Assembly: GCA_965204855.1 (NCBI GenBank)
Contig: OZ242018.1
Location: 304,185 to 368,184 of the forward strand
DNA length: 64,000 nucleotides
Direction of reading: 5' to 3'
DNA from: Dehalococcoidia bacterium
GTDB lineage: Bacteria; Chloroflexota; Dehalococcoidia; Lucifugimonadales; JADFKI01
The notes beneath the pieces are model-generated. The model had not been told where the DNA came from, made no database searches, and was given only the letters and a program-made list of their open reading frames with translations. The translations under genes and the position numbers were made by a program. This document shows, piece after piece, positions 13,069 through 45,078 of the stretch. Numbering within the stretch: the first letter of the stretch is position 1; the number at the start of each line of letters is the position of its first letter.

Positions 13069-13374
13069 TTAATCTCTCCCGCTACGCACAATGTCAGATA
13101 AGCCGCTGCCAGCCGTGAAAGCCACACGCTTGCCCGCAGGAACCTCGACAAGCTGACCGGCGTTGGGACCGGCAATGGGCCTGATTTTTCGAGGCGACGT
13201 GTCACGCACCTCAAATGTGCCGAAGCCGGTCAGGGTCACCCGGTCATTCTCCCTGAGGGCCTGTCCAATGCTGTTAAGCACGGAGTTCACCGACTGGGCC
13301 GCCTGCGCCTTCGGGCAACCGAGGCTTTTCGCTACCATGTCTACCAGTTGTCCCTTGTGTATTCTGTCCGCCAA
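13069..13374 (-). CDS. hup: HU/IHF-family DNA-binding protein
   Basis: LTGFGTFEVRD...GKRVAFTAG core of HU. The start was re-derived as TTG at 13374 with GGAGG 7 nt upstream. The track N-terminal extension has no HU homology. Confidence 0.85.
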   Translation of the reverse strand: MADRIHKGQLVDMVAKSLGCPKAQAAQSVNSVLNSIGQALRENDRVTLTGFGTFEVRDTSPRKIRPIAGPNAGQLVEVPAGKRVAFTAGSGLSDIVRSGRD

Positions 13375-13743
13375 TTTGAAACCTCCTCTGTTCAATCCGT
13401 TCTTGTAGTGGTTGATACCAGCAGGTTGCAATCGACTGGCGTTCCAGCTCATTGTTCGACGGTAGCTGCAGATCTCTATAACGCAGAAAAGACCGTTTTC
13501 TCGCGAACTTCGGTCGACTCAACGTCTCCCCAGCCGACTCATACGATAGCAAGTTCGTGGGGCCTCAGGAGTGCTGAGCCACTTCTGCCTGTGCTCCCGT
13601 AGATCGACAGTTGCCCTGACCGCTTGCACGACAGAGAATCTCGCACGGCTATATATGCTACACCAGGCAATGCACCTGAAACGCAAAAAAGTCCTTCTTT
13701 CCGTCAACTGATCCTGACTGGGACAATGAATGGTCAACGACAT

Positions 13744-14319
13744 TTACTCCGACCACTGCAGACAGATGAGGGCGCTGCATCCTGTCCTTACGAACTCAGC
13801 AAGCAGAAACTCTCGAAGCGCGTCGTCCATATCGCGGTCATCTTCGACAGGAGTCTTATCGACCGCCCACATCCTTACGGCGCTGGCTATCTGCTCGCCC
13901 GGAAGAGGCTCGAACTCCTCCTCTAGCTCATACGCCAGCCTGCTGAAATCGGACGGCGGTATCGCGCTCAGAACATTCTTCAAGTTAAGCAGGACGTTGC
14001 GCCAGATTATGTAGTATATGGTCTCGTCAGGGTCATGCCACTGCAGCATCCAGAGGTTCCGGCGCGAACTCCCATCCATAAGAAGACGCAGCCTGTCCGC
14101 CAGCCTGTCATCGCTTGTCAAGAACTCAAGCATCGAGTATTCGAGCGACCTGCACCGCACGAAGACGTAGGTTCCCGGCACGGTTCCGCTTTCAAACCTG
14201 GCCTCCAGCGCGTCCAAGACCGATTCGGCGGAGCGACGCGGCGCCAGTTCCTCTACGTTCTTCAGTTCGCAGTCCTCGATCAGGTAGTATTCCGTATCCA
14301 TCATTTTCCTCTTCCTCAT
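13744..14319 (-). CDS. Hypothetical protein
   Basis: 191-aa ORF with balanced, acidic composition, co-directional with dnaN. No motif recognised. Confidence 0.5.
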   Translation of the reverse strand: MRKRKMMDTEYYLIEDCELKNVEELAPRRSAESVLDALEARFESGTVPGTYVFVRCRSLEYSMLEFLTSDDRLADRLRLLMDGSSRRNLWMLQWHDPDETIYYIIWRNVLLNLKNVLSAIPPSDFSRLAYELEEEFEPLPGEQIASAVRMWAVDKTPVEDDRDMDDALREFLLAEFVRTGCSALICLQWSE

Positions 14320-14596
14320 TGCAGACGCTTATAGATCAGGGCCGACGCCGACTGAGCCAACTCGCTCACTCAGCCCTCAGAACTGTTGAGTGAAGCCTTC
14401 CCGCCCTTTTCCAAGTCGCAGCGACGCCTTGGCGCTTCTCCGACTTTTCTCCTGATTCCCTTACCCCTTGAGGCGGGAAGGCCTGAGTCTGAGTTTGTCG
14501 AGGGAATGGGAGGGCGAATCGTTTGCTCTCCGCCCTCCTGACGATGATTCCGCAAGTTTACCCAATGTCCGATTTTACCGGAAAGGGTCTCTTCGC

Positions 14597-15736
14597 TCAG
14601 TCTGTCCAGTCATGTACGAACATCGGCATCACGACATGCACGTAGCCGTTGTCCTCCGCAGGCTTCAGCACGCCGGGGTTTGTCGCCGATGACACTTCCA
14701 TCGCAATGTCCTCGCCCAGCACGTCAAGAACATCGGTGAGGTACTTGTAGTTGAAGGCGATCTTCGCCTCGTCGCCCTCCACGGCGGCGTTCAGTTGCCC
14801 CTCGTTGTCTCCAACCTCTTGAGAGCGAGACGCCACCGTCAGGCGTCCAGGCGTCTCTTCTTCCCCTGCCGCCACTCTCAGCCGGATGATGCCGCTGTCG
14901 TCCCGGGCGAAGATCGCGGCCGTGCGCGTGGCCCGCAGGAACTCCTGCGAGTTTAGCACGGCGCGCGTTGCGTATCCTTTAGGGATCAGTCTCTCGTAAT
15001 TCGGGAAGTTCCCGGCGATCAGCGACGAGACTATTTCCACGTCGCCCACGCGGAAGAGAGCCTGGTTTCCGGTGGGGGTCACCGTGAACTCCACGTCCTG
15101 CTCCTGGCTGCCCAGCAGGCGCGCCATCTCGTTCAGCACACGCGCCGGCACGAGGATGTCGATGTCCTTCTCTGAAGCCTCCGCCAGCTTCGCTCCGTAC
15201 ACGGCCAGCCTGAAACCGTCAGACGCCACGAACCTGGCCTCGTCGCCTCTTATCTCGACCTTCACTCCCGTCAGCGCGGTCCGCGCCTCATCGGTCGCCG
15301 CGGCAAACGCCACGCGCCTGATAGCCTCCCGCAGAGCGTCCGGCTGCATCCGCAGCGCTATCCCATCCTCGACGGTCGGGACCGGCGGGAAGTCGTCGGC
15401 ATCCGTGCCGCTGACATTCGATTCGAAGCTCACGCACTTGACGTTAACGCCGACTGGCTTCGCGGTCGACTCTATGCTGATCGTCTCCTCCGGCAGCGAG
15501 CTCACGAAGTCCCCGAGCAACCGCGCGGGAACCGTGATCGCCCCCTCCTCTTCGACGTTCGCTCCAATCCAGGTCGTCATCGACAGGCTCAGGTCGGTAG
15601 CCGAGAGCTTGAGCATCGACTGCTCGGCGCACAGAAGCACGTTCTGCGTGATGGGCAGCGTCGAAGGCGACGAGACGGCCCTTCCGACGACCGACAGCGC
15701 GCGGGCAAGATTCTCCTGTAGGCAAGTAAACTTCAT
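14597..15736 (-). CDS. dnaN: DNA polymerase III beta sliding clamp
   Basis: MKFTCLQENLARAL...LPITQNVLL N-terminus and three-domain length. ATG at 15736 with AGGAG 7 nt upstream. Confidence 0.9.
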   Translation of the reverse strand: MKFTCLQENLARALSVVGRAVSSPSTLPITQNVLLCAEQSMLKLSATDLSLSMTTWIGANVEEEGAITVPARLLGDFVSSLPEETISIESTAKPVGVNVKCVSFESNVSGTDADDFPPVPTVEDGIALRMQPDALREAIRRVAFAAATDEARTALTGVKVEIRGDEARFVASDGFRLAVYGAKLAEASEKDIDILVPARVLNEMARLLGSQEQDVEFTVTPTGNQALFRVGDVEIVSSLIAGNFPNYERLIPKGYATRAVLNSQEFLRATRTAAIFARDDSGIIRLRVAAGEEETPGRLTVASRSQEVGDNEGQLNAAVEGDEAKIAFNYKYLTDVLDVLGEDIAMEVSSATNPGVLKPAEDNGYVHVVMPMFVHDWTD

Positions 15737-16412: not shown

Positions 16413-16450
16413 CTTTCGGTAGCCATGACACGTTCCCTCATATCTAAGTG

Positions 16451-17189: not shown

Positions 17190-18680
17190 TTATCTGCCCG
17201 AATCGGCGCCTTTCGCCAGCTTCAGGGCAATCGTCGCGCCGGCGGACGCGCAGGAGTCTCCCCACGAATACCCGTGGGAGAACTCGCCGTCCGTAAGCGC
17301 ATGACCCAGCTCGTGTATCACGAGCGCCAGCTGCTCCCTGTCGCGTCCCTCGAAGAACTCGTCGCCCAGACGAGCCAGGTTGAACCTCATCGTGGGCCGC
17401 GCCGAGCGGGATGTGCAGTCCGCAAGCGCGAATGAGCGCGGGTTGTGGATGAATACCGGGTTCACCGTAACGCCGACATAGCGGCCAAGTTCCTTCACCC
17501 ACTTCGCAAAGGCCATCTTCGCCTGATCGTCCGACACGTCGACCACCTTGAGGTGCGGGTCCCGCTCTCCGCCGAGAGTCTTCCCGAAGCGCGCGCTTGC
17601 CGATTCCATTCCGCCCAGCTCGCGCAGGTTGGAACGCTCCTCCCTGCTCATCGTGCGTGGATGAATCACTTGGTAGCCCTTGTCCATGGCCTCCGAGTTG
17701 GCGTTTCTGTCGGATGACCACAGCACCGCCTTCCTGCCGTAACGCCGTTCCACGGTCGCGCGCGCAGCGTCTTCGCTGATCCTGCCGTCCTCGACGGCGG
17801 TGCGCACCCACGTCTCGCCGAACTCCTCGCGCTCCATTTGCCCGTGCATGCAGTTCAGCGCCTCGGCGTAGATGTCCTGAAGGTAGGATTCACTCACGGT
17901 GTCACGGTTGGGCGGCATGGGCACCTTCTGCTGCACGTCCACGTCGTAGGGAACCTCAATCGGCTGTATCGGGATGCCCATCTCGTAAATCCATCCCCTG
18001 CCCTCCGGATCGCTGACGCCGGTGATGTGAAGCTCTGTCTTGCGTCTCGTCGGGCGCATCGGCTCCCCGGGCGCGCCCTGAATGAGCGTAGAGAGAATTG
18101 CCGTATGCACCTTCAGCGCCTCTCGACGCTCCACTTCAATGTCGTTGACGGTGTACTTGCACCCCTCAGGCGGACGGAACAGCATCAGCCGCTCGACGAG
18201 CCTCTCGGCGTCCGCCTTCGTCCACGGCATCATCGCCTCCACGACCGTGCCGCGCTTGCGGTCGTTCCGCCGGACCTCGCGGCCGCCCTCCGGCGGAAAG
18301 CTCACCGTCCAGCCCACTGTCTGCACCACCGCATATGCGGCGACCGACAGGACCTCCTTCTCGCCCAGGTTGAACCGCCCTCGCTTTTCAGGATCCGCCC
18401 GCTTCTCGGTCTCTCCCATAAGGGTGTAGGCATCGTCGATGTTCGCGAAGCCTTCTCCATCATCCTCCACCGACACCAGCACCCTGTTTCTCGACTGGTG
18501 CTGCACTTTCACCCTGCACATCGTGGCATCTTCGTCCCATACGTTCTGAATTAGTTCCTTCACCAGGCTCTCCGGAGTCCTGCCCTTGTGCAGCGCCCGC
18601 ATACCCTCGGCGCTGACGCTGAAGCGCTCCTTCGCGCGCCTGACCTTCCTGTTTCTCATATCTCTAACCTTTCCTGACAT
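17190..18680 (-). CDS. GHKL-type ATPase-like protein with C-terminal HExxH motif
   Basis: The N-terminal ELIQNVWDEDA ... VEDDGEGF resembles the Bergerat-fold N and G1 boxes. The C-terminus has LVIHELGHAL (HExxH). Confidence 0.55.
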   Translation of the reverse strand: MSGKVRDMRNRKVRRAKERFSVSAEGMRALHKGRTPESLVKELIQNVWDEDATMCRVKVQHQSRNRVLVSVEDDGEGFANIDDAYTLMGETEKRADPEKRGRFNLGEKEVLSVAAYAVVQTVGWTVSFPPEGGREVRRNDRKRGTVVEAMMPWTKADAERLVERLMLFRPPEGCKYTVNDIEVERREALKVHTAILSTLIQGAPGEPMRPTRRKTELHITGVSDPEGRGWIYEMGIPIQPIEVPYDVDVQQKVPMPPNRDTVSESYLQDIYAEALNCMHGQMEREEFGETWVRTAVEDGRISEDAARATVERRYGRKAVLWSSDRNANSEAMDKGYQVIHPRTMSREERSNLRELGGMESASARFGKTLGGERDPHLKVVDVSDDQAKMAFAKWVKELGRYVGVTVNPVFIHNPRSFALADCTSRSARPTMRFNLARLGDEFFEGRDREQLALVIHELGHALTDGEFSHGYSWGDSCASAGATIALKLAKGADSGR

Positions 18681-19350: not shown

Positions 19351-21336
19351 TCACCTCGTCATCGCCTCGAATTCACTCTCGGTCACCACACGGACACCGA
19401 GCTTCCGTGCCTTAGCCAGCTTGCTGCCGGCTCTATCGCCAACCACCAGCAGGTCGGTCGTCTTCGTCACGGAACTCTGCACGGTCCCGCCCAGCACCGC
19501 GACCCTCGCGTTGATGCTGCCCCTGGTGTAGCCTTCCAGCTTGCCGGTCGCGCATATCTTCATGCCTGACAGTGGCAAGGTTTCGGTATCGGTATCCACA
19601 TCCTGCGGATCTACGCTTTCGGTGCCGACTCCGAGTTCTTGCAGGGCACGTAACTGCCGGCGATTGCTTGTATTCTGAACGTAGCCGACGAACGACTCTG
19701 CCATCTTCGGGCCGAAGCTCTCCACCTGACGAACCTCGTCGTAGGTTGCATCGAGCAGCCGGTCCAGGCTGCCGAACTGTTCCACCAGCTTCTCCGACGC
19801 GCTTCGCCCCACCTCCCTGATGCCAAGAGCAGCGAGCAGCTTGTGGAGCGGCCGGTTCTTCGACTCCCTTATCTCACGGAGCAGGTTCTGCGTCTTCTTT
19901 GGACCGAAGCCGTCAAGTGAGCCGATGTCCTCAGATTTCAGTCGGTAGAGGTCGCCGATCTGCTTCACCAGCCCGTGGTCGATCAGTTGCCTGATTACGG
20001 CTGGGCCTGCGCCGCGGACGGCCATGTAGTCCTGTCCGATGAAGTGCTCAAGCCCGCGCTGCAACTGCTCAGGGCAGAGCAGTGTGTTGGGGCAATAGAT
20101 CCGAGCCTCGTTCGCCGGACGCGCCAGCTTGCTGCCACACGCGGGGCAGACGGACGGAAACTCGATGCGCTGCTCGCCGCCGGTGCGTTCGTCTGCGAAC
20201 ACCTTCTCGACGGCGGGAATGACGTCGCCTGCGCGTTTCACCAGGATGCTGTCCCCGACCCGCAGGTCGAGCTCGTCGATAACGTCTTTGTTGTGCAGCG
20301 TGAGCCTCGAGATCGTCACGTCGCCTATCACGACAGGCTTCACCTCGCCAACGGGCGTCACGGCGCCTGTGCGCCCGACCGAGAAGGACACATGGTCGAG
20401 CCTCGTGCGCTCGGCCCTTGCCGCGAACTTGCAGGCAAAGGCCCAGTTCGGCGAAGTCCGCCCCGCTCCGAGTATCCCCCTCGCCGCGAGACTGTCCAAC
20501 TTCACGACCACGCCGTCGCAGTCGTAGCCAATGCCCTGGCTTTTCTCCAGCAGGGTATTGAACGCGCCTTCGATATCGCTCTCTGTGCGCAACCCGCCGA
20601 TGCCGTGCTCGACGACCTTGAATCCCAGACCGGCAAGCCACTGCATGATCTCGGAATGGCAGGCAAAGCCCCGCGGCCGGTCGGAGTGAAGCAGCCCATA
20701 GGCGAAGAAGCGAATGCCGCGCCTTGCGACTTCCTTCGGGTCGGAATGCCGCATCCCGCCCGCGACCGTGTTCCTGGGGCTGGTGTACAGTTCCTCGCCC
20801 GCCTGCTCCCTGTTATTGTTCAGCAGAACGAATTGCGAGTTCGGCATGTACGCCTCGCCGACTACCGAGATGCGACCGGAGATTTTCTCTCGTAGCCGCC
20901 TGGGCACATCCACTATCTGCAAAGCGTTCTGATAGACATTCTCGCCAACCGTGCCGTCGCCGCGCGTAGCCGCTCCGGAAAACACCCCATCCTGGTAGTC
21001 CAGGCGCAGCGCCATTCCGTCGATCTTCAGGTCGGCATAGCCTTCCGCCTCATTTGCCTTCCGGACTATTGCATGCCACGCCTCCGCTCTCTCCACTTGG
21101 CCGAAGGCATTGTCGAGGCTCAGCATCACCGCAGGATGCGCCACCTTCGGGCTGCCTGCAGGGACCGCGGCTCCAACTACAGGCGGACTTACGGGCTGTG
21201 CGGACGTTCCGCCCTCTCTGCGATGCAGCTGGCGAACCATCGCGTCGTACTCCTCGTCGCTGATGAGCGGAGTGCCCTTGTCGTACAGCTGCGAGTGCAG
21301 CCTTATGCTCTGTTCCAACAGTTCAATCTCAGTCAT
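19351..21336 (-). CDS. ligA: NAD-dependent DNA ligase
   Basis: Adenylation motif DLKIDGMAL (KxDG), zinc finger CPACGSKL...CPNTLLCP, HhH region and C-terminal BRCT-like segment. AGGAG upstream of the ATG. Confidence 0.92.
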   Translation of the reverse strand: MTEIELLEQSIRLHSQLYDKGTPLISDEEYDAMVRQLHRREGGTSAQPVSPPVVGAAVPAGSPKVAHPAVMLSLDNAFGQVERAEAWHAIVRKANEAEGYADLKIDGMALRLDYQDGVFSGAATRGDGTVGENVYQNALQIVDVPRRLREKISGRISVVGEAYMPNSQFVLLNNNREQAGEELYTSPRNTVAGGMRHSDPKEVARRGIRFFAYGLLHSDRPRGFACHSEIMQWLAGLGFKVVEHGIGGLRTESDIEGAFNTLLEKSQGIGYDCDGVVVKLDSLAARGILGAGRTSPNWAFACKFAARAERTRLDHVSFSVGRTGAVTPVGEVKPVVIGDVTISRLTLHNKDVIDELDLRVGDSILVKRAGDVIPAVEKVFADERTGGEQRIEFPSVCPACGSKLARPANEARIYCPNTLLCPEQLQRGLEHFIGQDYMAVRGAGPAVIRQLIDHGLVKQIGDLYRLKSEDIGSLDGFGPKKTQNLLREIRESKNRPLHKLLAALGIREVGRSASEKLVEQFGSLDRLLDATYDEVRQVESFGPKMAESFVGYVQNTSNRRQLRALQELGVGTESVDPQDVDTDTETLPLSGMKICATGKLEGYTRGSINARVAVLGGTVQSSVTKTTDLLVVGDRAGSKLAKARKLGVRVVTESEFEAMTR

Positions 21337-22668: not shown

Positions 22669-23331
22669 TCACGCGAGCCCATCGCCCCGGTCCAACTTCC
22701 TGATGCCGGGACGAACACCTTCGCTTACCACGGTAGAGCCAACTCTGGAAGCGCCATTCTCCCCTGCCGGTCGGCACCCCAGCGCCCTTTCGAGCAGGCT
22801 GTCGTACTCACCTCCGAGGAACCTTTTCAGCACGACTGCTACGCCGTCCTCAGCGGAGCGCACGAGCACACCCCTGTTCCATACGGGCTCCGACGTGATC
22901 CCGCTCAGCTGGTCGACTATTCCTTCGACACGTCCGCCGATGCGCAGGCAGTACGAGACCATTCGCGCAAGTCCCTCAAGGTGGGCGTACTCGATCTCCC
23001 CGCACTTGCCGACGCGGATGAATACCTCGAAAAGCCTCCAGTCCTCATCGGTGTTGAGCGTAACGAACAGCTTGCCGCCAGCCGTCATCACCTCGTCGGT
23101 GACTCCGGCAACAACCCTGGGACGTTCACGCGCACCGTAGTTGCCTTCTCTCCCGTTATCAGTCTCACCCGTGGTCAGGTCCAGTTCCTCGCTCAAATCC
23201 AATCGGAAGTCCTCTAGTGTCTCCGCAATCGGCTCCTCGCTGTCCAGGAACTCCGTCAGGTCTTTCGTCTCCCGGGCGACGTTCATCGTCGCGGTTACTT
23301 CCTTTAGCATTCGCTCTCTCTCTCCTGTCAT
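22669..23331 (-). CDS. TSCPD-domain-like protein
   Basis: LFVTLNTDEDWRLFEVFIRVGKCGEIEYAHLEGLARMVSYCLRIGG...QLSGI resembles the TSCPD module found at the C-terminus of class II ribonucleotide reductases. Confidence 0.5.
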   Translation of the reverse strand: MTGERERMLKEVTATMNVARETKDLTEFLDSEEPIAETLEDFRLDLSEELDLTTGETDNGREGNYGARERPRVVAGVTDEVMTAGGKLFVTLNTDEDWRLFEVFIRVGKCGEIEYAHLEGLARMVSYCLRIGGRVEGIVDQLSGITSEPVWNRGVLVRSAEDGVAVVLKRFLGGEYDSLLERALGCRPAGENGASRVGSTVVSEGVRPGIRKLDRGDGLA

Positions 23332-23991
23332 TTACTTTCTGCGCGTGAGCTTCGGGAGCATCCTTGCGCGCCGCATGCTGAACGCCCGGTCGTTGTGGCA
23401 GATGATGTGGTCGAGAATCTCGATCCCCAGCATCTTGCCCACCCGGCACATGTCCCTCGTCGTTCGCCTGTCCAGCCTGCTCGGCTGCACCTTTCCCGAC
23501 GGATGGTTGTGAAACAGCACCACGTACTCCGCGCCAGTAAGCAGCGCGTCGCGGAAGATGTCCCTAGGCTCCAGCCTCTGAATGCCGTCAACCGTGCCCT
23601 GATAGACCATCCTCTTCGCCAGAAGCCCGTCGAATCGCGTCAGCGCCGCAACGTGCAACTGCTCATGCCCCAGTCCATATAGCTCTTCGCGTACCAGCTC
23701 GAACAGTGCCTCGGGCCCCCTCACGATGAGAAGTCCTGCGGCGTCCCTGTTCAGGCTGTCCCTGTCGTATCCCAGCAGCGCCAGTGCCTCGATGAGGTCG
23801 GCCGAGTTCCCTTTGGGGGCTTGCCTGAGCATCCTGCGCAGGTGAGCGGCAGCCGCCACCGGGTCGATTTCAATCCTCTCTCGTCTTCCGGTAATCGTCA
23901 GAACCAACAGTCGCTTCCTATCCCTTCGCCATTCGCCGGTTTCGCAGCACTCTTGCGGAGTGAGCGCCGCCGAACTTCCGCCTGGTTCCAC
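23332..23991 (-). CDS. radC: RadC-like JAB domain protein
   Basis: VVLFHNHPSG JAMM-like motif and typical RadC length. The start is uncertain because of the overlap with the upstream ORF. Confidence 0.8.
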   Translation of the reverse strand: MEPGGSSAALTPQECCETGEWRRDRKRLLVLTITGRRERIEIDPVAAAAHLRRMLRQAPKGNSADLIEALALLGYDRDSLNRDAAGLLIVRGPEALFELVREELYGLGHEQLHVAALTRFDGLLAKRMVYQGTVDGIQRLEPRDIFRDALLTGAEYVVLFHNHPSGKVQPSRLDRRTTRDMCRVGKMLGIEILDHIICHNDRAFSMRRARMLPKLTRRK

Positions 23992-31324: not shown

Positions 31325-32338
31325 CTAGCCTTGCTCGCGCTCGATCTCGCGGGCCTGCTGCACCAGCAGCGCCAGCTCTTCGCTCGTCGCCTGGCTGATG
31401 GGCTTGCCGTGCTTGCGCATGTAGTTGGTGAAGATCTGTCCCCTGTTCAGCCCGCACTCCACGCCTATGGTGACGTACTCCTCCATGACCTCGTCACGCG
31501 AGAGCGCGCCCGAACCATTCCCGTTTGCCGTGGGGGTAGGCTGCTCCACGGCTTCCCGCGCGGCATACGGCCACTCGCCTGCCGCATCCTGAGCAGTTCG
31601 CGCGGACGCGGTTGCGCGGCCGTTGCGCTGAGGGCCGCTCGACGCGGGCGCTGCATAGCTCGCCGTCTCCCTGCTCAGCGGAACCTCTGCCGGCACGTAC
31701 GGCGTCTGCTCGCAGTAGCCGGTATCGGTGCTGTCCTTGCGGGAGCAGTAGTAGCCGTCCCCGCGATTGCTCTCGTGGATGTGCCTGCCCGGTCCGTGCC
31801 TGGGGCAGGTCGGCTGGTTGGGATCGGACGCTGAGCTCTCCCCGTCGCCCGCGTACAGCGCGTTTCCGAACTGGTTGCCCAGACCCCGGCTGCACCGCTT
31901 CAGGCCGTCCGAGATGCTGCCCTTGCGCGCCTTCTCGTGGTTCTCCAGAACGACGTGCATCGAGACGCCCGGCTTCATCCGGTCGACGAGGCCGAAGCCC
32001 TCGTCGCTGAACATCTCGCGATCGAAGACGTACAGCGCCACGAGTGCCGCGTAGTATTCGCCCCTGCGGATCGCTCCCGTATTGTCGTCCACATGCTCCA
32101 CCCGGTAGAGCGTGGGACCCGCCTTCACCCTGTAGTGCCAGTTGCCGTGCCCGAAGATGCGGTTGTGCTGGTTGATGACCTCGTTCGTTTCCAGGTAGGA
32201 ATACTCCTTGCCGCCCGCGCCGGTGTAGCTGTCCACCAGCTTCGGGTCCAGCTCCTCCTGCAGCTGCTGCACGATCCCCTTCGAGAACGCGCCGTCTCCC
32301 GTTCCGTCGATGTTGTGCTTTCCGTTGTTGTTCTCCAA
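31325..32338 (-). CDS. Rad52/Rad22-family single-strand annealing protein
   Basis: YLETNEVINQHNRIFGHGNWHYRV ... KARKGSISDGLKRCSRGLGNQFGNALY matches conserved Rad52-type blocks. C-terminal extension with Cys/His residues. Confidence 0.75.
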   Translation of the reverse strand: MENNNGKHNIDGTGDGAFSKGIVQQLQEELDPKLVDSYTGAGGKEYSYLETNEVINQHNRIFGHGNWHYRVKAGPTLYRVEHVDDNTGAIRRGEYYAALVALYVFDREMFSDEGFGLVDRMKPGVSMHVVLENHEKARKGSISDGLKRCSRGLGNQFGNALYAGDGESSASDPNQPTCPRHGPGRHIHESNRGDGYYCSRKDSTDTGYCEQTPYVPAEVPLSRETASYAAPASSGPQRNGRATASARTAQDAAGEWPYAAREAVEQPTPTANGNGSGALSRDEVMEEYVTIGVECGLNRGQIFTNYMRKHGKPISQATSEELALLVQQAREIEREQG

Positions 32339-35805: not shown

Positions 35806-36951
35806 CTACTTCTTCTTCGCGGGCGTTATGTTGAGCCTCCGACTCACGGTCGGCAGCACCACCTGCTCGCGGACCTCGGGAGCGACAAGCTCGTTGAACG
35901 CGTCCATGTCGATGCTGACTCCCGGCTTCTCCGAGACCTTCATATTCCACGTCTTACCGTCGATCACCATCTCGCCGGCGAGCTCGCCGGTCGAGACGAG
36001 GTGCGCCTTGATCGTCTCTGATGCCGCCTTCTTCTGCTTCGACGCGGGAGAGCTGGACTTCGGGGCGCCGGAGCTGGCGTCGATCCACGACCTCAGCTGC
36101 GACTCTAGCTCCTCGTCCGTCAGACCGCCCTCGCCGGGGTTCTCAGGCTTCTCGGCGTTTCCGCACAGGCTCCTGTAGGGGCAGGACTGGCAGTGGGAGT
36201 CTCCCTGTGGAAGCTCCGGCTCCGGTATATCGCCCTTCAGCACCATCCGGCCTATCTCGCTCACGCGCTTCATCGTCCTGTCGTACGCCTGCTTCGCGCG
36301 CGCCGCCGGTATCCGCTCCGCCCTGTAGTCCCCGGAGTCGCGCGCCATCGTTACCACCACGATGTCCCGTATCTCGCCGAACCTCGCCATGCTGTACAGC
36401 GCGGCCTGGTTCACGGCGTCGGGATGCGTGCGCTCGACACCCACCTCCCAGGCGTACTCGGCCATCGACACCGACCGCGTCTTGATCTCGATGACGGCAG
36501 GCGCGCCCGATGTCTTCACCGGGTGGCTCGCCACGCCGTCGGGGTGTCCGGTGAGGATGATCCTGCCGTGGGGCAACTCGACGACATCATCTTGCTCGCC
36601 CTCGATCTCCCAGCCGTCCTCGCGCATCAGCTGCTTGACCAGCGGCTCCAGGTACTTGCCCATCTCCATCAGCGCACGGTTCCGCGTGGGGATCTCGTCG
36701 CTCGGCTCGACCTCCTTTGCCTCGTATGCCAGTCGGCGCATGCACTCGTCAACGCCGGACATGCGCACCTCCATGCTCACGACCGCCCTCACGTTCGGCC
36801 TGTCGAGCGGCAGGTCCCTGCTCTCGCCTGGCTGCGCAGGCGGTCTCACCGGCTCCGGCGCGGCGGCCGTCACCTGAGCAGTGGCAACCGGCTCAGGCCC
36901 GTACAGCGCATCCACGATTTCTCTCGTCTTCGCGTCACTCGTTCCTATCAT
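35806..36951 (-). CDS. Cas4/RecB-like PD-(D/E)xK exonuclease with Cys cluster
   Basis: GHPDGV...AVIEIKTRS (D...ExK), one N-terminal Cys (DECMRRL) and a C-terminal CQSCPYRSLC (C-x2-C-x5-C), as in Cas4/AddB iron-sulfur nucleases. Confidence 0.7.
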   Translation of the reverse strand: MIGTSDAKTREIVDALYGPEPVATAQVTAAAPEPVRPPAQPGESRDLPLDRPNVRAVVSMEVRMSGVDECMRRLAYEAKEVEPSDEIPTRNRALMEMGKYLEPLVKQLMREDGWEIEGEQDDVVELPHGRIILTGHPDGVASHPVKTSGAPAVIEIKTRSVSMAEYAWEVGVERTHPDAVNQAALYSMARFGEIRDIVVVTMARDSGDYRAERIPAARAKQAYDRTMKRVSEIGRMVLKGDIPEPELPQGDSHCQSCPYRSLCGNAEKPENPGEGGLTDEELESQLRSWIDASSGAPKSSSPASKQKKAASETIKAHLVSTGELAGEMVIDGKTWNMKVSEKPGVSIDMDAFNELVAPEVREQVVLPTVSRRLNITPAKKK

Positions 36952-37935: not shown

Positions 37936-38937
37936 CTACGCAGCCTCCTGAAGAACCTCCTCGTCCCCGAAGTCCTCGGCGTTCGGCGGGGGATTGTCCT
38001 CGTTCACGAACCTGATCACCGCCATCGCGTCCTTGATCGCGCCGCCCAGCAGCTCCGGCTTGTCTTCGATTGCCCTATACCAACTCACAATGTAGTCGGC
38101 GCTGGTCTTGCGCTCGTGCGCGAAGCCGTACTGCGTGAGCAGCGAGGCGGTGGCGAACTGCGTCACCATCTCCTCGTACGCGTAGTCGCCTCCCTGTGGG
38201 GCGCAGGGCGAGCCGTACCTGTTGACCTTGAATCGGTTGAGCTCGCCCGGCGCGCCGGTCGCATGCACCAGTTCGTGGATCATCGACTGCGCGAACCGCT
38301 CCGGCTTCCGGTACTCCCGCGTCGGCGGCAGCACGACCTCGTGAGTCGCAGGCCGGTAGTGCGGGGCGCGTATCATCGCCTCCTCACGCATCGTGGGAGC
38401 GGTCCTGAAGTTCGCCAGCATATGCTCCTTCACCGCCTCGATGCGCTCGCCAGCCGGCGTATCGCCCCAGTCCGATACCTGAAGCGGCGGTATGTCCAGC
38501 TCCGCGAGGTTCGCGAACTGCTCCACGTTGAACACGAAGAACGGACGATAGTACACGCCGACCACCTCTTCCTCGCCCGTGTCCTCGTTGACCTCCTTCC
38601 GCTGCATCGGATACCAGAGCTGCGTCATGCGCTGGCCGCGGAAGTCGGCCTTGAGCTCCCTCGCCTTGCCCCTAGTGACGAAGCGCGGGTCCGTCCAGCC
38701 CGTGCCGAAGGCGCGCACCTGAAGCATGAACATGTTGAACGAGCCGCCGTACTGGTGGCTCGTGAACGGGTTGTAGGGCAGGTGTCCCAGCCTTCCGGAG
38801 TCCCAGGGCATAACCTCCCGCTTCAGAACCTCTTCCTTCAGCCCGAGCATGTACTCCAGTATCCTCTGCTCAGGCGTCTGCTTTTTGCCGCCGGACTTCC
38901 TGCGCCTGTAGGTCTTCTTTCCTCTGTTCTTTGGCAT
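37936..38937 (-). CDS. ardC: ArdC-like antirestriction protein (ssDNA-binding N-domain plus zincin-like metallopeptidase)
   Basis: The N-terminal PWDSG...PYNPFTSHQYGGSFNMFML...TRGKARELKADFRG matches the ArdC-N pattern. The C-terminus has MIHELVHATG (HExxH). Confidence 0.8.
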   Translation of the reverse strand: MPKNRGKKTYRRRKSGGKKQTPEQRILEYMLGLKEEVLKREVMPWDSGRLGHLPYNPFTSHQYGGSFNMFMLQVRAFGTGWTDPRFVTRGKARELKADFRGQRMTQLWYPMQRKEVNEDTGEEEVVGVYYRPFFVFNVEQFANLAELDIPPLQVSDWGDTPAGERIEAVKEHMLANFRTAPTMREEAMIRAPHYRPATHEVVLPPTREYRKPERFAQSMIHELVHATGAPGELNRFKVNRYGSPCAPQGGDYAYEEMVTQFATASLLTQYGFAHERKTSADYIVSWYRAIEDKPELLGGAIKDAMAVIRFVNEDNPPPNAEDFGDEEVLQEAA

Positions 38938-39659: not shown

Positions 39660-40631
39660 CTATGCAACTCTGTACTGCTGTCTCAACTGCGTCATAGCCT
39701 CCTGAAACCGCCGTTTCTCCAGACTCGCCTTCAGCTCCGTATCTTGCCTGTGGCGCTTTCGCGCCTCCTCCATGCGCCGCTCATAAAGCGCATCCTCAGC
39801 CTGCCTCGCGCCCTCGACGAGCTTCTCCAGAGTCTTCGCCTTAACCGCAACGAGCCTCGTGCGCTGCCAGGGAGTGCCGACCATTCCGAGGCAGCGAATG
39901 CAGTTTCCCCGGTAGGAGGGACGCGGCTGGCTGTCCGAGTGGCGCACGGCCTTCAGCCAGATCATCGACACCTCCCGCCTGCAGCTGAGGCAGTAGGCGT
40001 ACTCAGGCGGCTCGAAGACGAGCTTGCGCTCCGCGAGACTGCGATGCCTCTCCCTGCGTACCTTGATGCCGCCGGTGCGCGTCATGATGGCGTCGCACTC
40101 AGGACAGCTGGCGATAGTCATCGTGCGGCCGCCGATCTCCACCTCTTCTATATCCTCCGCGGCAACCGTCCTCCGGCAGTCCTCGCCTCCGGCGTTGCGG
40201 CAGCTCACGCAGTAGAAGTCCTGAAGGACGACCTGCTCGAAGCGAGGCTCCTTCCTGGTGAAGAGCTTGCCGCGCCTGCCGGTTCTCACGTCAACCTTGT
40301 TCTCGTCGCTGTCGAGGAACTTGACCGCGTATATGCCGTGCAGGGCAACGTCCACCTGGCGTCCCGCAAGCGCGGCAATGCCGGCGAGTTCTTCCGTATC
40401 GGTTATCGCCTGTCCGGTCAGGGTGATTACGCTGACGAACCCGAGGGGGTAGCGCTCCATCTCGTCGCGCAGCATGTCGAGCGCAGGCGAGTCGAACTTG
40501 GCGACGACGGCCACGGTGTCCCCGTAGCTGCCAACGCCGAGCGCGAGGCAGTCGCCGCTGCCCTCGTTGACCTCGGCCTCACCGATGAAGCCGAGCGTGA
40601 ATATCCTTGCCGACCTGATTTGCTTCCTCAT
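39660..40631 (-). CDS. Multi-zinc-ribbon hypothetical protein
   Basis: ATG at 40631 (MRKQIRSARIF). Contains CVSC, CPEC, CLSC and CIRC pairs. The track start 40691 overlaps the terminator at 40675-40703. Confidence 0.5.
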   Translation of the reverse strand: MRKQIRSARIFTLGFIGEAEVNEGSGDCLALGVGSYGDTVAVVAKFDSPALDMLRDEMERYPLGFVSVITLTGQAITDTEELAGIAALAGRQVDVALHGIYAVKFLDSDENKVDVRTGRRGKLFTRKEPRFEQVVLQDFYCVSCRNAGGEDCRRTVAAEDIEEVEIGGRTMTIASCPECDAIMTRTGGIKVRRERHRSLAERKLVFEPPEYAYCLSCRREVSMIWLKAVRHSDSQPRPSYRGNCIRCLGMVGTPWQRTRLVAVKAKTLEKLVEGARQAEDALYERRMEEARKRHRQDTELKASLEKRRFQEAMTQLRQQYRVA

Positions 40632-40728: not shown

Positions 40729-41484
40729 CTATTCTTGGGGGAAGTAGTCCGCGAATGGACTCAGCAGGAGCGCGTCCAGCTCATCGCGCACCTTCCTGAC
40801 TTCCCTGTACTGCGTCACCGCGAAAACGGCGAGGTCTTCGAGCAAGCCTTCCGTGTTTCGCAGTTCGTAGAGCCCGCGTTCGAGACCCGCCACAGCCTCG
40901 ATGTTCCGCAAGTAGCTGTCGTCCTTCCTATCTTGGACCGGCTGCGTGACTTCAAGCAATTGCGGAAAGTCCCGAGTTCTGTTCCGCAATCTGAGATTCA
41001 TCACCGCGAGAAGCAGGTCCTTCGCAAGCTCGTCGCCGATGTACTTTCGCGGCTCCACTCTGACCCACCGCGTACAGGCTGTCAGCCGCTCGTACATCTG
41101 CACGATGGGATTACTGCTCGTAAAGAGCGGCTCGGCCATCAGGTAGAACCTTAATCCTCTTCGGTCGATCCACTTTCCCATGTATTCTTCCCAGTAGAGT
41201 GGGTCGTATGAAATTGTGGAGCGGCGGCCGTCTATTGGCGCGTACACCAGCTCGCTGAGGTAGGTGCGGTCGAAGACATACAGCGTGTCTTCGGGAGCGT
41301 CCTCGACCATTTTCATATCCGCATCGAGCCTGTCCGGCGTGCTGTCGCCCCTGGAATGGTGAATGCTCTGCACCTCCTTCCATTCACCGGACGCCAATGC
41401 CACCTTCTTGATCTGCCCGGCTAGTGTGCTCTTGCCCGACCCATGTGTGCCTTCCAGTGCAATTATGTGTCCCACGTTTCTCAC
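40729..41484 (-). CDS. P-loop (d)NMP-kinase-like protein (thymidylate-kinase-like)
   Basis: HIIALEGTHGSGKSTLAG Walker A in the Tmk-like context. The GTG start overlaps the macrodomain gene stop (GTGA). Confidence 0.55.
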   Translation of the reverse strand: MRNVGHIIALEGTHGSGKSTLAGQIKKVALASGEWKEVQSIHHSRGDSTPDRLDADMKMVEDAPEDTLYVFDRTYLSELVYAPIDGRRSTISYDPLYWEEYMGKWIDRRGLRFYLMAEPLFTSSNPIVQMYERLTACTRWVRVEPRKYIGDELAKDLLLAVMNLRLRNRTRDFPQLLEVTQPVQDRKDDSYLRNIEAVAGLERGLYELRNTEGLLEDLAVFAVTQYREVRKVRDELDALLLSPFADYFPQE

Positions 41485-41951
41485 TCCGATTCTGATTCTT
41501 GTCTGGGGTTGCAGACCGTTACCTCGATTGCCGACTGCTTGCCGAACTCCCTCTCGATGACCTCCCGCACGTCTCGCCAGCCAAGACCGCCCAAACCCAC
41601 GCCGAGCGCGGGAAGCGCGACCGAGCGGATACCGCGTCTGAGCAGCTCACGGTTCAGGTTGCCCAAGCCCAGCCGTATGTCGCGCAGCCGGCTCTCATCG
41701 CGCCAGTGCCGTTTCGTGGGGAAGTTGACAATGTACCCGGGGCTGTCCAACCCTGTCTCGGTGATGGTCCCGCGCCCCGGCTTAATCCGACCTTCCTTGC
41801 AGGCCTTCCTGTACAGCCTGTCGTTCTCCGGATAGCGCGTGGCGAACTCTCTCGCCAGCCCTGCCCCGGAGACACCGACGGAGTTCACCGGATTCACAAT
41901 AGCCTCTGCGTCTATCTCGAAAATGCTGCTGTCCGTGTAGCTGACTCCCAT
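41481..41951 (-). CDS. Macrodomain protein, DarG/TARG1-like
   Basis: AIVNPVNSVGVSGAGLAREF ... NFPTKRHWRDESRLRDIRLGLGNL ... IRSVALPALGVGLGGLGWRDV follows the DarG-type macrodomain pattern. Confidence 0.7.
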   Translation of the reverse strand: MGVSYTDSSIFEIDAEAIVNPVNSVGVSGAGLAREFATRYPENDRLYRKACKEGRIKPGRGTITETGLDSPGYIVNFPTKRHWRDESRLRDIRLGLGNLNRELLRRGIRSVALPALGVGLGGLGWRDVREVIEREFGKQSAIEVTVCNPRQESESE

Positions 41952-41953
41952 CC

Positions 41954-42330: not shown

Positions 42331-42355
42331 TTGTGCTGTTAGTCGCGCTGTAGGA

Positions 42356-43090
42356 CTACCAGGGCATGTCGTCTCCCTGCCGCCCCGAGCCGTTCCCTGC
42401 GGGCGCTCCAGCAGGGGCACCGTCGCTGGGCGCGCGATCGAGGAACTGGATGAAGCTCGCGGTCAGCACGAAATTAACCCTGTCCTCGCCGGCGTTCGTC
42501 TTGTAGAAATCGAGTTCCACGCGCTCGCCCTCGACGTAGAGCTTGCTGCCCTGGCGTGTGTACTGGTCGAGGTTCTCGGCGAGGCCGTTCCACGCGGTCA
42601 TGTCGGCCCAGAGCGTGTCCTCCTGGCGCTCGCCCGCGCTGTCCGTGAAGCGGCGGTTGAAGGCGATCCTCGCGTTGGTGACCGGAATGCCCGCCTCGTT
42701 GGTGTAGCGCATCTCAGGATCCGCGCCCAGGTTGCCGATTCCGCGGAAGCGGATGTACGTCTCAGAGGAGTCTCCCAGCGGGAGAACCCTGTGCGCTGCG
42801 ATCACCATACGGGCCTGCAGCGCGCCGTCGCTCTGCCTGTTGTACTCGCGCACCTTCAGGTCGCCGTCGATGAAGATGGCGTCGCCATCCTTGAAGCGAT
42901 CGGCGCAGAAGAGCGCGGTGTTGTTCCAAACCTCGACGGTGAAGTGCGTCTCGCGCTCGCGCCTGTCGCCGCCCTCCGTCTCCCACGACTCGCTAACGAT
43001 GACCGGGATGCGGCCACCGACGGCGCCGGACTCGAACTGCTGGGTGAAGATGTTGCCGTTGACCTTGCCAATGATAGAGATGTTCTTCAT
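42356..43090 (-). CDS. ssb: Single-stranded DNA-binding protein with two OB folds and an acidic C-terminal tip
   Basis: Two OB-like halves (...HFTVEVWNNTA...DGDLKVREY... and ...TLWADMTAWNGLAENL...GSKLYVEGERVELDFY...). A Gly/Pro-rich linker ends in GDDMPW, a variant of the canonical DDDIPF tip. Confidence 0.75.
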   Translation of the reverse strand: MKNISIIGKVNGNIFTQQFESGAVGGRIPVIVSESWETEGGDRRERETHFTVEVWNNTALFCADRFKDGDAIFIDGDLKVREYNRQSDGALQARMVIAAHRVLPLGDSSETYIRFRGIGNLGADPEMRYTNEAGIPVTNARIAFNRRFTDSAGERQEDTLWADMTAWNGLAENLDQYTRQGSKLYVEGERVELDFYKTNAGEDRVNFVLTASFIQFLDRAPSDGAPAGAPAGNGSGRQGDDMPW

Positions 43091-43199
43091 TTTGAAGATT
43101 CCTTTCCTGGGCTTTGCCCTGGTTGAGATATAGTTGATTCCGCACTCCGTTCCTTAGTCCCGCTGAAGCTCTCAGCCGGACCGCCGTTTCGATGCAGCC

Positions 43200-43877
43200 T
43201 TACGCAGCTTTTGCCGCTCCAGCCGACGTGCCGTTTGCCTGTCTGATCCGGCAGGTCAGGAACCTGACGTCCGACGCCTGCACGTCGAGGCTTGCCTTCT
43301 GCTTGCCATCGCGCCCGCGATACTTCGACACCTGCAACGACCCTTCGACACGGACACAGCGCCCCCGGTAGAGATGGGATTGGCAGACCACCGCCCTTGC
43401 ACCGAAGACGCTCACGTCCACGGTGTCCGTCCTCTCCCTGCCGCGCTTTGTGCGAACCGCCTTCACCTGGAACGAGCTGACGTCAGTGCCGTTCGCCGTG
43501 CGCGAGTGATAGGGATTCGTTCCCAACTCGCCCACGACGGTCGCCTTCGCGTAATGCTGCTCTCCCCTCTTGCAGAACGTCACCTCGTTTGTTGTCACGG
43601 TTGCCTTCGCCTTCACACCGCCTCTCTTGCCCTCTCTAACCGAGAATTCGAGCGTGCCCCTGACCTGGACGATTGCGCCCCTGTCCACATACCTGCTGGC
43701 GTATTTCGCCGCGGGCCCGAACACCAGCACGTCGTAGTAGTCGCGCCTGAGCGGGTTTACCTGCACTCCGACCTTCAGCAGAGCCATCTTCCCGTTCGCC
43801 TTGAGTACCGGCTTGAATGTGGCGAATCCCTTGATATCGATATTCAGCTCGTGTCCGTTTCCCTTCTGCGTGGCCAT
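43200..43877 (-). CDS. Second tandem-OB SSB-like protein without acidic tip
   Basis: Two OB-like halves (YYDVLVFGPAAKYASRYVDRGAIVQVRGTLEF and TVDVSVFGARAVVCQSHLYRGRCVRVEGSLQVSKY). Basic C-terminus. Confidence 0.55.
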   Translation of the reverse strand: MATQKGNGHELNIDIKGFATFKPVLKANGKMALLKVGVQVNPLRRDYYDVLVFGPAAKYASRYVDRGAIVQVRGTLEFSVREGKRGGVKAKATVTTNEVTFCKRGEQHYAKATVVGELGTNPYHSRTANGTDVSSFQVKAVRTKRGRERTDTVDVSVFGARAVVCQSHLYRGRCVRVEGSLQVSKYRGRDGKQKASLDVQASDVRFLTCRIRQANGTSAGAAKAA

Positions 43878-43954
43878 ATCCGACTGTCCTTTCTCGACTC
43901 TTGCCGTATCATTTCGTTGTTGGCTTGGGATTGCGCTACTCGCCTCAGTCCATA

Positions 43955-43992
43955 AGAAAAAACCCCCGCCGGCGGGTGCCTTGCGGGGGGGG
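43955..43992 (-). terminator. Intrinsic terminator containing a C9 (plus-strand G9) run
   Basis: On the minus strand: CCCCCGC...GCGGGGG stem followed by TTTTTT. The homopolymer occupies 43984-43992. Confidence 0.65.
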
Positions 43993-44013
43993 GTGATTAG
44001 AGAATGGCGATGA

Positions 44014-45078
44014 TTACCCGAGCGCCTCCATAAAGCGCGTCTTGCCGTCGGGGACAGTCGCCAGGTCCGCTATGTCCTCGTAGCCGCCGGGCAACCTGAT
44101 CGCTGACGCGTTCGCGAGAGTCGCAAGCTGTTCTTCGCCGTCTTCGATGTCCAGCCCCAGCAGCCTTCTCGTCAGGCTCTCGCCTTTCTCGTTGGCGTCG
44201 AGCGCGAGAACCACCTCTCCCGCCCGCACCCTGTTGAGCTGCTGCACCAGCCGCTCGATGTTGCCGTTGCCCGCAAGCCCCACTGATGGCAGTTCCCACT
44301 CGCGCAGGGTCAGCCAGTCGAAGACGCCCTCTGCCACTATCAGACGCTTCATTCGTCGAGGCAGGGTGCCTATGCCCAGGATGGCCTTGCTTCCGGGTAG
44401 GGCATTGAAGCGAGGCTTCACGTTCTCACGGACGGTGCGACCGGTCATCCAGACCGTACTGCCGTTCAGTGTCTCCGGAACTACTACCATGCAGGCGAAG
44501 CGTTCACGCCTCCCTCTGTCCAGCAGAAGCCCCGACCGAAGAATGCGGTCCTTACCGAAGCCCTGCTTCAGCAGGTAGCTCTTCAGTCCTTTTCCCGTGC
44601 AGTAGCCGAGCTGCAGGGCTTGCGCCGTCGCCCTGCTGATGCCGCGTGCCTTGAGGTAGTTGCGTCCGGGCAGTCCTGAATCTGCGCTCAGCAGTATGTC
44701 CCGATAGAAGGTGAGCGCTGCACGCACTACCGCGCCGTCCTGCCCGAGAGTGCGGCGGAACGTGGGCTTGGCGTAGCGAGTCCTGACTGGTGTCACAGGC
44801 TGTCGCTGTAAGGTACTTGCAGCCTCCTGAACACCCACGTCATCGAGCTTGCGGATGAAGTCGAGCGCGTCGCCCCAGGCCCCGCAGCCGAAGCAGTGAA
44901 AGCGCTGACTATCAGCGTAAACGGTGAAGCTGCCTTCGCTTTCGTCGTGGAACGGGCAGACGCCCTGGCGAACGCGTCCCGAGCCGGGAGTGAGCTTGAT
45001 GCCGCGACTCTCCACGATGTCTCCAAGATCTCTGGTCCGTGCTATCTGTCCGAGTTTCGTGAAATATGCAGTTGCCAT
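44014..45078 (-). CDS. DnaG-like DNA primase (CHC2 zinc finger plus TOPRIM)
   Basis: CPFHDESEGSFTVYADSQRFHCFGCGAWGD zinc finger. TOPRIM-like VAEGVFDWLTL ... LALDANEKGE. No helicase-binding C-domain (354 aa). Confidence 0.85.
   Translation of the reverse strand: MATAYFTKLGQIARTRDLGDIVESRGIKLTPGSGRVRQGVCPFHDESEGSFTVYADSQRFHCFGCGAWGDALDFIRKLDDVGVQEAASTLQRQPVTPVRTRYAKPTFRRTLGQDGAVVRAALTFYRDILLSADSGLPGRNYLKARGISRATAQALQLGYCTGKGLKSYLLKQGFGKDRILRSGLLLDRGRRERFACMVVVPETLNGSTVWMTGRTVRENVKPRFNALPGSKAILGIGTLPRRMKRLIVAEGVFDWLTLREWELPSVGLAGNGNIERLVQQLNRVRAGEVVLALDANEKGESLTRRLLGLDIEDGEEQLATLANASAIRLPGGYEDIADLATVPDGKTRFMEALG

Follow-up and report, generated by a model that had tools for sequence, protein, structure and literature searches.

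A probable establishment and replication-recombination module of a large integrative element in a Dehalococcoidia chromosome

Leading regions of conjugative elements carry co-oriented genes for single-stranded DNA-binding proteins (SSBs), methyltransferases and anti-defence proteins (Samuel et al. 2024, PMC11541004); an anti-restriction role of ArdC has been described for the R388 protein (PMC7213743). Integrative and conjugative elements (ICEs; criteria in PMC3158045 and PMC3218068) and conjugative plasmids with a monoderm type IV secretion system (T4SS) are found in Actinomycetota and Firmicutes, the Embleya plasmid NZ_CP108778.1 being one example. Integrative and mobilizable elements (IMEs), or 'hitchers', are usually small and possess a relaxase or a recognisable origin of transfer (oriT) (PMC5704250). 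Our literature search returned no ICE or conjugative-type element described for Dehalococcoidia. Here we analyse a 64-kb stretch of contig OZ242018.1 from a Dehalococcoidia bacterium (64,000 nucleotides, hereafter the window), in which a 32-kb block of co-oriented replication, recombination and anti-defence genes (13069–45078) probably belongs to a large integrative element.

The block resembles conjugative leading regions in its co-oriented SSB, methyltransferase, ArdC and anti-defence genes, and in block relatives the array adjoins a relaxase cluster. It differs from them in being far longer, in adding a sliding clamp, an NAD-dependent ligase, HU, a primase and a recombination set, and in having a conventional promoter with a structured leader instead of an Frpo-type inverted-repeat promoter. 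With the monoderm T4SS elements, the relatives of the block share the gene order VirB4–coupling protein–relaxation protein; the Dehalococcoidia family is likewise chromosomally integrated and includes tyrosine recombinases. However, protein identity to these systems is only 25–31%, the host is a member of Dehalococcoidia, and the window copy has no such cassette. Like IMEs, the element in the window and one relative, termed copy B below, combine a recombinase and maintenance genes with the lack of a T4SS, and they co-occur with T4SS-bearing relatives sharing the same head sequence. Unlike typical IMEs, the window element is at least 62 kb long and has no relaxase and only a candidate oriT.

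We consider, with a probability of about 75%, that the block serves a large integrative element residing in a Dehalococcoidia chromosome as its module for establishment, replication-recombination and anti-defence. Judged by their genes, the complete members of this family appear to be conjugative, of the T4SS kind, with VirB4-like, coupling-protein-like and replication-relaxation genes followed by the block. The window copy appears to be devoid of the transfer cassette and to keep a recombinase, a ParA/AAA+ arm, an RNA polymerase beta-subunit (RpoB) paralogue, and defence and host-interaction cargo. The block itself would be an ICE/IME establishment region in type, its replisome and RNA polymerase cargo being unusual.

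The co-oriented block, its relatives and its noncoding head

Listing of open reading frames (ORFs), combined with a filter on GC content at third codon positions that separates real genes from shadow ORFs, left 37 ORFs in the block. All 37 lie on the minus strand, the coding fraction is 92%, and no credible plus-strand gene was found by the same procedure. The anti-defence, SSB and methyltransferase genes are thus co-oriented, which is one of the leading-region criteria of PMC11541004. The GC content of the entire window is 0.61. An earlier sequence-only reading of this DNA had described the same 32-kb unidirectional minus-strand block, with 35 ORFs. The ORF junctions it listed are right (23331/23332 and 34947/34948 abut, 41481–41484 is a 4-nt overlap), and 13743/13744 is a further abutting one. 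Its count of at least ten terminators proved slightly high: eight long-stem (≥10 bp) hairpin-plus-T sites and one palindromic site lie on the minus strand in the intergenic gaps of the block, and weaker terminator-like sites are in total no more frequent there than in shuffled controls. Pfam, NCBIfam and PADLOC confirm its domain assignments, the dNMP-kinase-like one only weakly, through a P-loop match. Where it had counted about 15 proteins with no motif, many of them Cys-rich, we find about 17 family-less ORFs, several of which are Cys-rich (up to 9% Cys).

Relatives of the methyltransferase-helicase encoded in the block were found exclusively in Dehalococcoidia metagenome-assembled genomes (MAGs), several of which are closed chromosomes of 3.6–3.8 Mb. 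Identity across 11 Dehalococcoidia loci is 59–96%, as against about 29% to DUF6094-helicase genes of conjugative plasmids. Copies of the block occur three times in OZ242283.1, near 3.05, 3.18 and 3.36 Mb (the three being termed copies A, B and C), twice in OZ241923.1 and in three further assemblies, and the copies in OZ242283.1 and OZ241923.1 sit at unrelated positions. From the SSBs to LigA, the genes keep their order (tblastn, blastn), even at 59–63% helicase identity, and the dnaN/GHKL/HU end is rearranged between lineages. LigA was found in every copy, down to those 59–63% identical, so genomes with several copies of the block hold several ligA genes. The three related elements of OZ242283.1 lie within 340 kb (3.04–3.38 Mb; loci L002, L005, L006, L011, L016–L018 and L023).

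The primase of the window is 100% identical to protein P0121, and its RpoB-like protein likewise has a 100% match; both matches lie on a 3,264,858-bp contig, which places the window in a chromosome and not on a free plasmid. Ten genes compared with their relatives gave ratios of nonsynonymous to synonymous substitution rates (dN/dS) of 0.07–0.20, indicating purifying selection. The GC content of the element (0.60–0.62) is close to that of chromosomal loci (0.58–0.59), which suggests a long residence in this lineage.

The dnaN gene of the block provides a direct comparison with the host. Its product contains three Pfam clamp domains and scores 288 bits with the equivalog model TIGR00663 (cut-off 138 bits); its nearest relatives are from Chloroflexota. 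It is 92–94% identical to other element copies and 71–73% identical to the hosts' own DnaN proteins, which are 92–97% identical among themselves. Element-borne DnaNs form two clades (92–94% and 86–95% identity within, 66–68% between) and share 72–77% identity with the host clade and 61–64% with more distant Chloroflexota. We infer that the element acquired its clamp from this host lineage and that the clamp then probably evolved much faster than the host copy. In OZ242283.1, one dnaN (P0025) lies among metabolic genes and another (P0089) inside the block, and a further DnaN of the housekeeping type (P0008) comes from a 3,264,858-bp contig.

Two observations that could have overturned the sequence-only reading, namely that the block holds the only dnaN, ligA and hup genes of its genome or that its gene order is part of the core chromosome in related taxa, were thus not made: the source chromosome and two related chromosomes possess a separate housekeeping dnaN, and the block is a multi-copy, variably placed accessory element. 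The dnaA–dnaN neighbourhood cited there as the normal context does not apply in this lineage, in which the housekeeping dnaN is not beside dnaA. Mobile elements can evidently capture host replisome parts, and the element clamp is a natural model for how polymerase loading can be hijacked by such elements. Extra dnaN, ligA and rpoB genes on mobile elements can also mislead marker-gene phylogenies and MAG completeness or contamination estimates.

Upstream of the primase gene lies a conserved noncoding element of about 310 nt, present in one copy per element. Its promoter has a −35 box at 45683–45688 and a TG-extended −10 box GATAAT at 45661–45666, the consensus in the copies being TTGACT-N16-TGaGATAAT; in both T4SS-less copies the −35 box is degraded (TTGCAT and TTGCTT versus TTGACT). 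The leader that follows ends in a 21-bp hairpin and a U-rich tract. Five aligned copies are 81–91% identical in all pairs, compared with 28–60% for flanking noncoding DNA, and primase identity falls to 66% across copies with the conserved head. A sixth copy, at L023, matches the same profile with 288 bits. No Rfam family was matched at the gathering threshold or with E up to 5, and a 57-aa ORF overlapping the head is not conserved as a protein. RNAalifold with six sequences yielded 85 pairs, of which about 25 vary by wobble-compatible single changes, one shows a compensatory change and eight are broken. We favour a cis-acting leader or attenuator RNA. As an alternative, the head is a candidate oriT, which would explain its retention in T4SS-less copies. 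An Frpo-type single-stranded DNA promoter was rejected, as no inverted promoter partner exists upstream of or inside the element. The spacer between leader and primase (45080–45380; about 9700–10000 in L016, L017 and L021) is poorly conserved and contains element-specific short repeats: CGACCAC four to five times in three relatives, and CATAGC/TATAGC both in the window and in L020. Such repeats could serve as operator or specificity sites.

Transfer genes, element limits and competing explanations

Four related copies have a co-oriented transfer cassette directly upstream of the primase gene: A and C of OZ242283.1, one on a 620-kb contig and one on a 1.52-Mb contig. Its first gene encodes a VirB4-like ATPase of 813–816 aa (P-loop_TraG, 56.7 bits, above the cut-off), whose matches in the plasmid collection are mostly conjugative plasmids, the best at about 31% identity (Embleya, Streptomyces). 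The second encodes a P-loop protein of about 900 aa (904 aa) that matches an annotated T4SS coupling protein with an E-value of 2e-29; it scores below the cut-off of Pfam TraG-D_C and has no significant match among PDB sequences. The third product is a replication-relaxation protein of about 580 aa (Replic_Relax, 34.1 versus a 25.3-bit cut-off), a candidate relaxase only, and one or two family-less ORFs follow. The Embleya sp. plasmid NZ_CP108778.1 encodes, in this order, a PrgI-family protein, a VirB4-like protein, a coupling protein, a replication-relaxation protein and an NlpC/P60 hydrolase.

Neither the window nor a contiguous stretch of about 60 kb from a relative contains capsid, portal, terminase or tail families (Pfam, PHROGs). 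A megablast search with 25 kb of the block gave no match in phage (50,697 records) and plasmid collections, and neither the helicase nor a 25-mer taken from the leader found relatives in scans of IMG/VR and JGI metagenomes. The VirB4, coupling-protein and replication-relaxation genes beside the primase, together with the lack of virion genes and phage relatives, argue for a conjugative family of the monoderm T4SS kind. Dehalococcoidia thus appear to have conjugative-type elements, 60–70 kb in size and up to three per chromosome. The sequence-only reading had proposed an ICE-, plasmid- or phage-plasmid-type module and had seen no relaxase, T4SS, terminase or capsid gene. Family scans of the window likewise find none of these, and the proposal is borne out in the form of an integrated element of a conjugative-type family. 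The window copy itself cannot, on its gene content, be called an ICE. Copy B, also without a T4SS, and the T4SS module of copy A are separated by less than 50 kb and share one orientation, which may reflect tandem accretion.

On the right, homology with the relatives ends near position 45700, which is about 60 nt upstream of the promoter at the block head. The sensor kinase and giant adhesin-like genes beyond it (45776–62595) have no counterpart in any related locus and, on this reading, would be cargo between the conserved leader and a recombinase gene. Upstream of the copy B primase lie genes for an HU-like protein, a 450-aa integrase, a 784-aa ORF product and, on the opposite strand, a 277-aa tyrosine recombinase. 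The latter (in L023) is 82% identical to the recombinase of the window and has the same relative orientation, and the DNA flanking the two genes is unrelated. We therefore regard the 62788–63657 gene as the probable terminal integrase of a T4SS-less subfamily comprising the window element and copy B.

On the left, the gene order of 1189–9217 (ParA, 89-aa protein, AAA+, pentapeptide-repeat protein, small ORF, RpoB-like protein) recurs downstream of copy B (L018) and on the 620-kb contig (L019), which makes the left arm a part of the same element. The ParA and 89-aa proteins are 95% and 92% identical to the L018 pair, and the pair is kept in L019 too. Loci L020, L009 and L019 overlap into one stretch of about 60 kb of the 620-kb contig, with VirB4 at one end and ParA and an ImuB-DnaE2 pair at the other. 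The DUF4238 gene left of ParA is absent from relatives, which sets the end of the conserved backbone at about position 1000. Taken together, the shared recombinase and the conserved left arm indicate that the element spans at least 1189–63657 (≥62 kb) and would be about twice as long as the 32-kb block originally flagged.

Several points weigh against this interpretation. The 64-kb window contains no relaxase, VirB4 or coupling protein (Pfam; tblastn with the cassette proteins), and the replication-relaxation protein of the relatives, itself only a candidate relaxase, has no match in PLSDB. The link between recombinase and element is drawn from one other example, copy B; no att sites were found, the right end shares no direct repeat of ≥11 nt with the candidate left or internal ends, and the left end of the element is outside the window. 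The term leading region draws on gene content and on adjacency to the relaxase cluster of relatives, and excision, replication and transfer of the window element are predicted from its genes. The leader-RNA structure has a z-score of −1.9 on this strand versus −0.75 on the other, and shuffled alignments equal the observed covariation.

Given that the left end is not in the window, the element could be a complete self-transmissible ICE whose T4SS/relaxase module lies beyond position 1 or in a tandem partner. The closeness of copy B to the module of copy A makes a tandem or composite arrangement plausible, and on the 620-kb contig a single contiguous element has both the T4SS genes and the RpoB/ParA arm. 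However, each of the four T4SS-bearing copies has its cassette right beside the leader and primase, and at this junction the window holds cargo and a recombinase instead, like copy B; we regard a complete ICE as unlikely.

The missing cassette, the degraded −35 box in both T4SS-less copies and the chromosome-like GC content would also fit an immobile, domesticated or decaying remnant kept for its cargo (defence genes, adhesins, extra clamp, RpoB paralogue). Yet all 37 ORFs of the block are intact, with lengths as in the relatives and dN/dS values of 0.07–0.20; conservation extends to the leader, the recombinase and the partition arm, and copies occupy different loci in closely related hosts, which makes decay or domestication a rather improbable explanation.

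A prophage or phage-plasmid early region is suggested by the trio of annealase, PD-(D/E)XK nuclease and SSB and by the clamp gene, all of which also occur in phage early operons, but it is very improbable given the lack of virion families, of matches in the 50,697 phage records and of IMG/VR relatives, and given the conjugation-type genes of the relatives. An ordinary replisome/repair neighbourhood of the core chromosome, although dnaN, ligA, HU and rpoB pass housekeeping family models, is practically refuted by the separate housekeeping dnaN, by the presence of as many as three differently placed copies on one chromosome, by an RpoB-like protein with no OZ241923.1 match (a close relative of the source) among the best 120, and by the interleaved ArdC, DarG-type macrodomain, CBASS, ParA and recombinase genes.

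If the block is indeed the establishment module of an integrative element, its products may act as follows. The head promoter, the structured leader of about 270 nt and the hairpin would gate transcription into the co-oriented array, which would become active after excision or upon entry into a new cell. The primase and the two SSBs would prime, convert, coat and protect single-stranded DNA, and the orphan DarG-type macrodomain could reverse DarT-type ADP-ribosylation of that DNA. ArdC and the methyltransferase-helicase would counter restriction, and the Rad52-like annealase and PD-(D/E)XK nuclease would recombine or repair element DNA. The element clamp, NAD-ligase and HU might recruit the host polymerase, seal nicks and organise or package the DNA, respectively, and ParA with the AAA+ protein would maintain an extrachromosomal stage. 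We hypothesize that the window copy could be moved by a T4SS-bearing relative, in trans or in tandem.

The probable RNA polymerase beta-subunit paralogue

A second full-length beta subunit beside the housekeeping gene, with an intact catalytic core, is known from Nonomuraea as rpoB(R) (PMC5431353). The RpoB-like protein of the window is similarly full length, keeps the catalytic motifs and carries substitutions in the rifampicin-pocket region. Unlike the actinomycete paralogues (PMC5431353), it belongs to a mobile element in all three contexts seen (the window, L018 and L019), is only about 43% identical to the canonical RpoB of its phylum and falls into a clade of 38 clusters. Literature searches returned no RpoB borne by a mobile element, the rpoB paralogues found being chromosomal ones of actinomycetes. 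Among 72,556 PLSDB records, 68 contain an rpoB of any kind, all less than 60% identical to the window paralogue; many of these records are Mb-sized or have no rpoB annotation.

Matches of the paralogue descend in steps of identity (100%, 85–88%, 76–79%, 59–65% and 50–57%), below which canonical Chloroflexota RpoBs form a plateau at 44–46%. Members of the 38-cluster clade share 48–91% identity with each other and on average 43% with 77 canonical sequences, and dN/dS is about 0.1. Housekeeping rpoB genes are recognised by the order rplL–rpoB–rpoC and by an identity that tracks host phylogeny, and the 5489–9217 gene shows neither: no rpoC or rplL lies beside it, its neighbours being family-less ORFs and the pentapeptide-repeat gene. 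Hosts whose DnaN proteins are 97% identical have paralogues of only 87% identity. In OZ241923.1 (3,622,151 bp), whose DnaN is 93% identical to that of the source, no member of the paralogue clade was found among the best 120 matches. Both observations mark the gene as accessory, and we strongly infer that it is a paralogue existing beside the canonical rpoB of its genome.

In the rifampicin-pocket region, the clade replaces SQLSQFMDQTNP by SKLCQV[VTL]DETNP and EGPNIGL by EGQNIGL. Sites of type-II divergence in this region (10 of 37) are mildly enriched, below significance. The pentapeptide-repeat protein encoded next to the paralogue is of the DNA-mimic type, and the pairing of such a protein with a polymerase-subunit paralogue hints at target-protection cargo.

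The RpoB paralogue and the conserved leader could be parts of a new kind. We speculate that the element family carries a private replication and transcription kit, in which the divergent beta subunit would join the host alpha, beta-prime and omega subunits; we hold this idea only tentatively. Such an element-specific RNA polymerase, perhaps with the help of the 270-nt leader, might transcribe the 32-kb array through its intrinsic terminators. Alternatively, it might render transcription resistant to toxins or antibiotics targeting RNA polymerase. If true, this would be the first conjugative-type element to replace a core RNA polymerase subunit, and with this paralogue it becomes testable whether a mobile element can remodel the core transcription enzyme of its host.

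Other genes of the window

The coordinates of all features are listed in Table 1.

Table 1. Predicted features of the 64-kb window, ordered by position
Feature	Coordinates	Strand	Evidence or remark
DUF4238 protein, left of ParA	44..955	+	No counterpart in relatives
ParA partition ATPase	1189..1872	+	Pfam CbiA/AAA_31/MipZ; NCBIfam ParA_partition below cut-off
89-aa ParA partner	1869..2138	+	Paired with ParA
Tandem AAA+ protein	2163..3530	+	Both halves DnaC/DnaI/IstB-like; Pfam IstB_IS21 twice and Bac_DnaA
Pentapeptide-repeat protein, 533 aa	3527..5128	-	Pfam Pentapeptide 175 bits; downstream of RpoB paralogue
Small ORF, ~164-176 aa	5026..5556	-	No family; same place in L018 and L019
Probable RNA polymerase beta-subunit paralogue	5489..9217	-	rpoB equivalog cut-offs passed (1155 vs 896, 1136 vs 801 bits)
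CBASS cyclase	10927..11697	+	PADLOC 250 bits; overlaps effector gene
CBASS NucC effector	11630..12460	+	PADLOC 272 bits; overlaps cyclase gene
HU-type DNA-binding protein	13069..13452	-	Last block gene; Pfam Bac_DNA_binding 65.8 bits
Second, element-borne dnaN	14597..15736	-	True start 14 codons inside ORF; 379 aa
GHKL-type ATPase	17190..18680	-	Pfam HATPase_c_3 32 bits; kept in other copies
NAD-dependent DNA ligase LigA, full length	19351..21336	-	Six Pfam ligase domains above cut-offs
TSCPD-domain protein	22669..23331	-	Pfam; abuts RadC ORF
RadC-like JAB protein	23332..23991	-	Pfam
DUF6094 methyltransferase fused to SNF2/DEAD helicase	24381..28526	-	1381 aa; Pfam
ParB-like protein, 623 aa	28615..30486	-	HTH_ParB above cut-off; ParB_N and PRTRC_parB below
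Rad52-like annealase	31325..32338	-	Pfam Rad52_Rad22 61.9 bits
PD-(D/E)XK nuclease	35806..36951	-	Pfam PDDEXK_1 26.6 bits
ArdC anti-restriction protein	37936..38937	-	Pfam ArdcN (ssDNA-binding N-terminal domain) and MPTase-PolyVal (zincin peptidase)
Conserved 323-aa protein	39660..40631	-	No family; four invariant CxxC and long C-terminal helix in five-copy alignment
Stand-alone DarG-type macrodomain	41481..41951	-	PADLOC DarG 181 bits (model 2-150 of 329); Pfam Macro
Two SSB genes	42356..43877	-	Pfam SSB; two OB stretches per gene
DnaG-type primase	44014..45078	-	First block gene; Pfam CHC2 zinc finger and Toprim
Conserved noncoding element, ~310 nt	45380..45693	-	Promoter, ~270-nt leader, terminator-like hairpin
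Hybrid sensor kinase/response regulator	45776..48181	-	Pfam
Giant surface protein, 1541 aa	48452..53077	+	Pfam leucine-rich repeat (LRR)/fn3/cadherin
Giant surface protein, 3004 aa	53581..62595	+	Pfam LRR/fn3/cadherin
XerC/XerD-like tyrosine recombinase	62788..63657	+	Pfam Phage_integrase 85.9 bits

Within the block, the segment 31325..36951 on the minus strand forms a recombination unit of annealase, five conserved family-less ORFs and nuclease, whose order is kept in all copies. PHROGs searches with ten family-less ORFs gave nothing meaningful, and PDB sequence searches with three of them gave no significant match. The GHKL-type ATPase shows weak MutL-like N-terminal matches. For the conserved 323-aa protein with four CxxC motifs, a single-sequence match to antiterminator Q (E = 0.043) disappeared with a five-sequence profile and is regarded as chance; its AlphaFold2 single-sequence model is unusable (predicted local distance difference test score of 40). 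The macrodomain gene is neighboured by a small ORF on the SSB side and by a P-loop protein gene. A full DarTG system is not encoded there, as the C-terminal domain of DarG is unmatched and no DarT was found among the neighbours of the macrodomain. A group II intron reverse transcriptase gene lies just upstream of ardC in all three OZ242283.1 copies (L016 17938–19722, L017 17535–19319, L023 18386–20170) and is not found in the window.

In the left arm, the tandem AAA+ protein scores 190 bits with NCBIfam PRK08116 (cut-off 189) and is a candidate helicase loader or initiator; its gene adjoins the ParA and 89-aa genes in L018 and L019 as well. The C-terminal part of the pentapeptide-repeat protein is also kept in both of these loci. 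In the element of the 620-kb contig, an ImuB-DnaE2 mutagenesis pair adjoins ParA (L019 21653–23735).

The stretch separating the RpoB-like gene from HU is a variable slot, occupied in the window by an islet of low GC content (0.52), in which a CD-NTase cyclase gene and an adjacent effector gene (10927–12460) make up a cyclic oligonucleotide-based antiphage signalling system (CBASS). In the relatives L018 and L019, the slot contains other defence-type genes, ThsB-TIR or DEAD/DUF6339. On the opposite side of the window, the two giant surface-protein genes have paralogous 5′ leaders (48216–48318 and 53380–53482) and paralogous 3′ ends (53191–53334 and 62479–62622).

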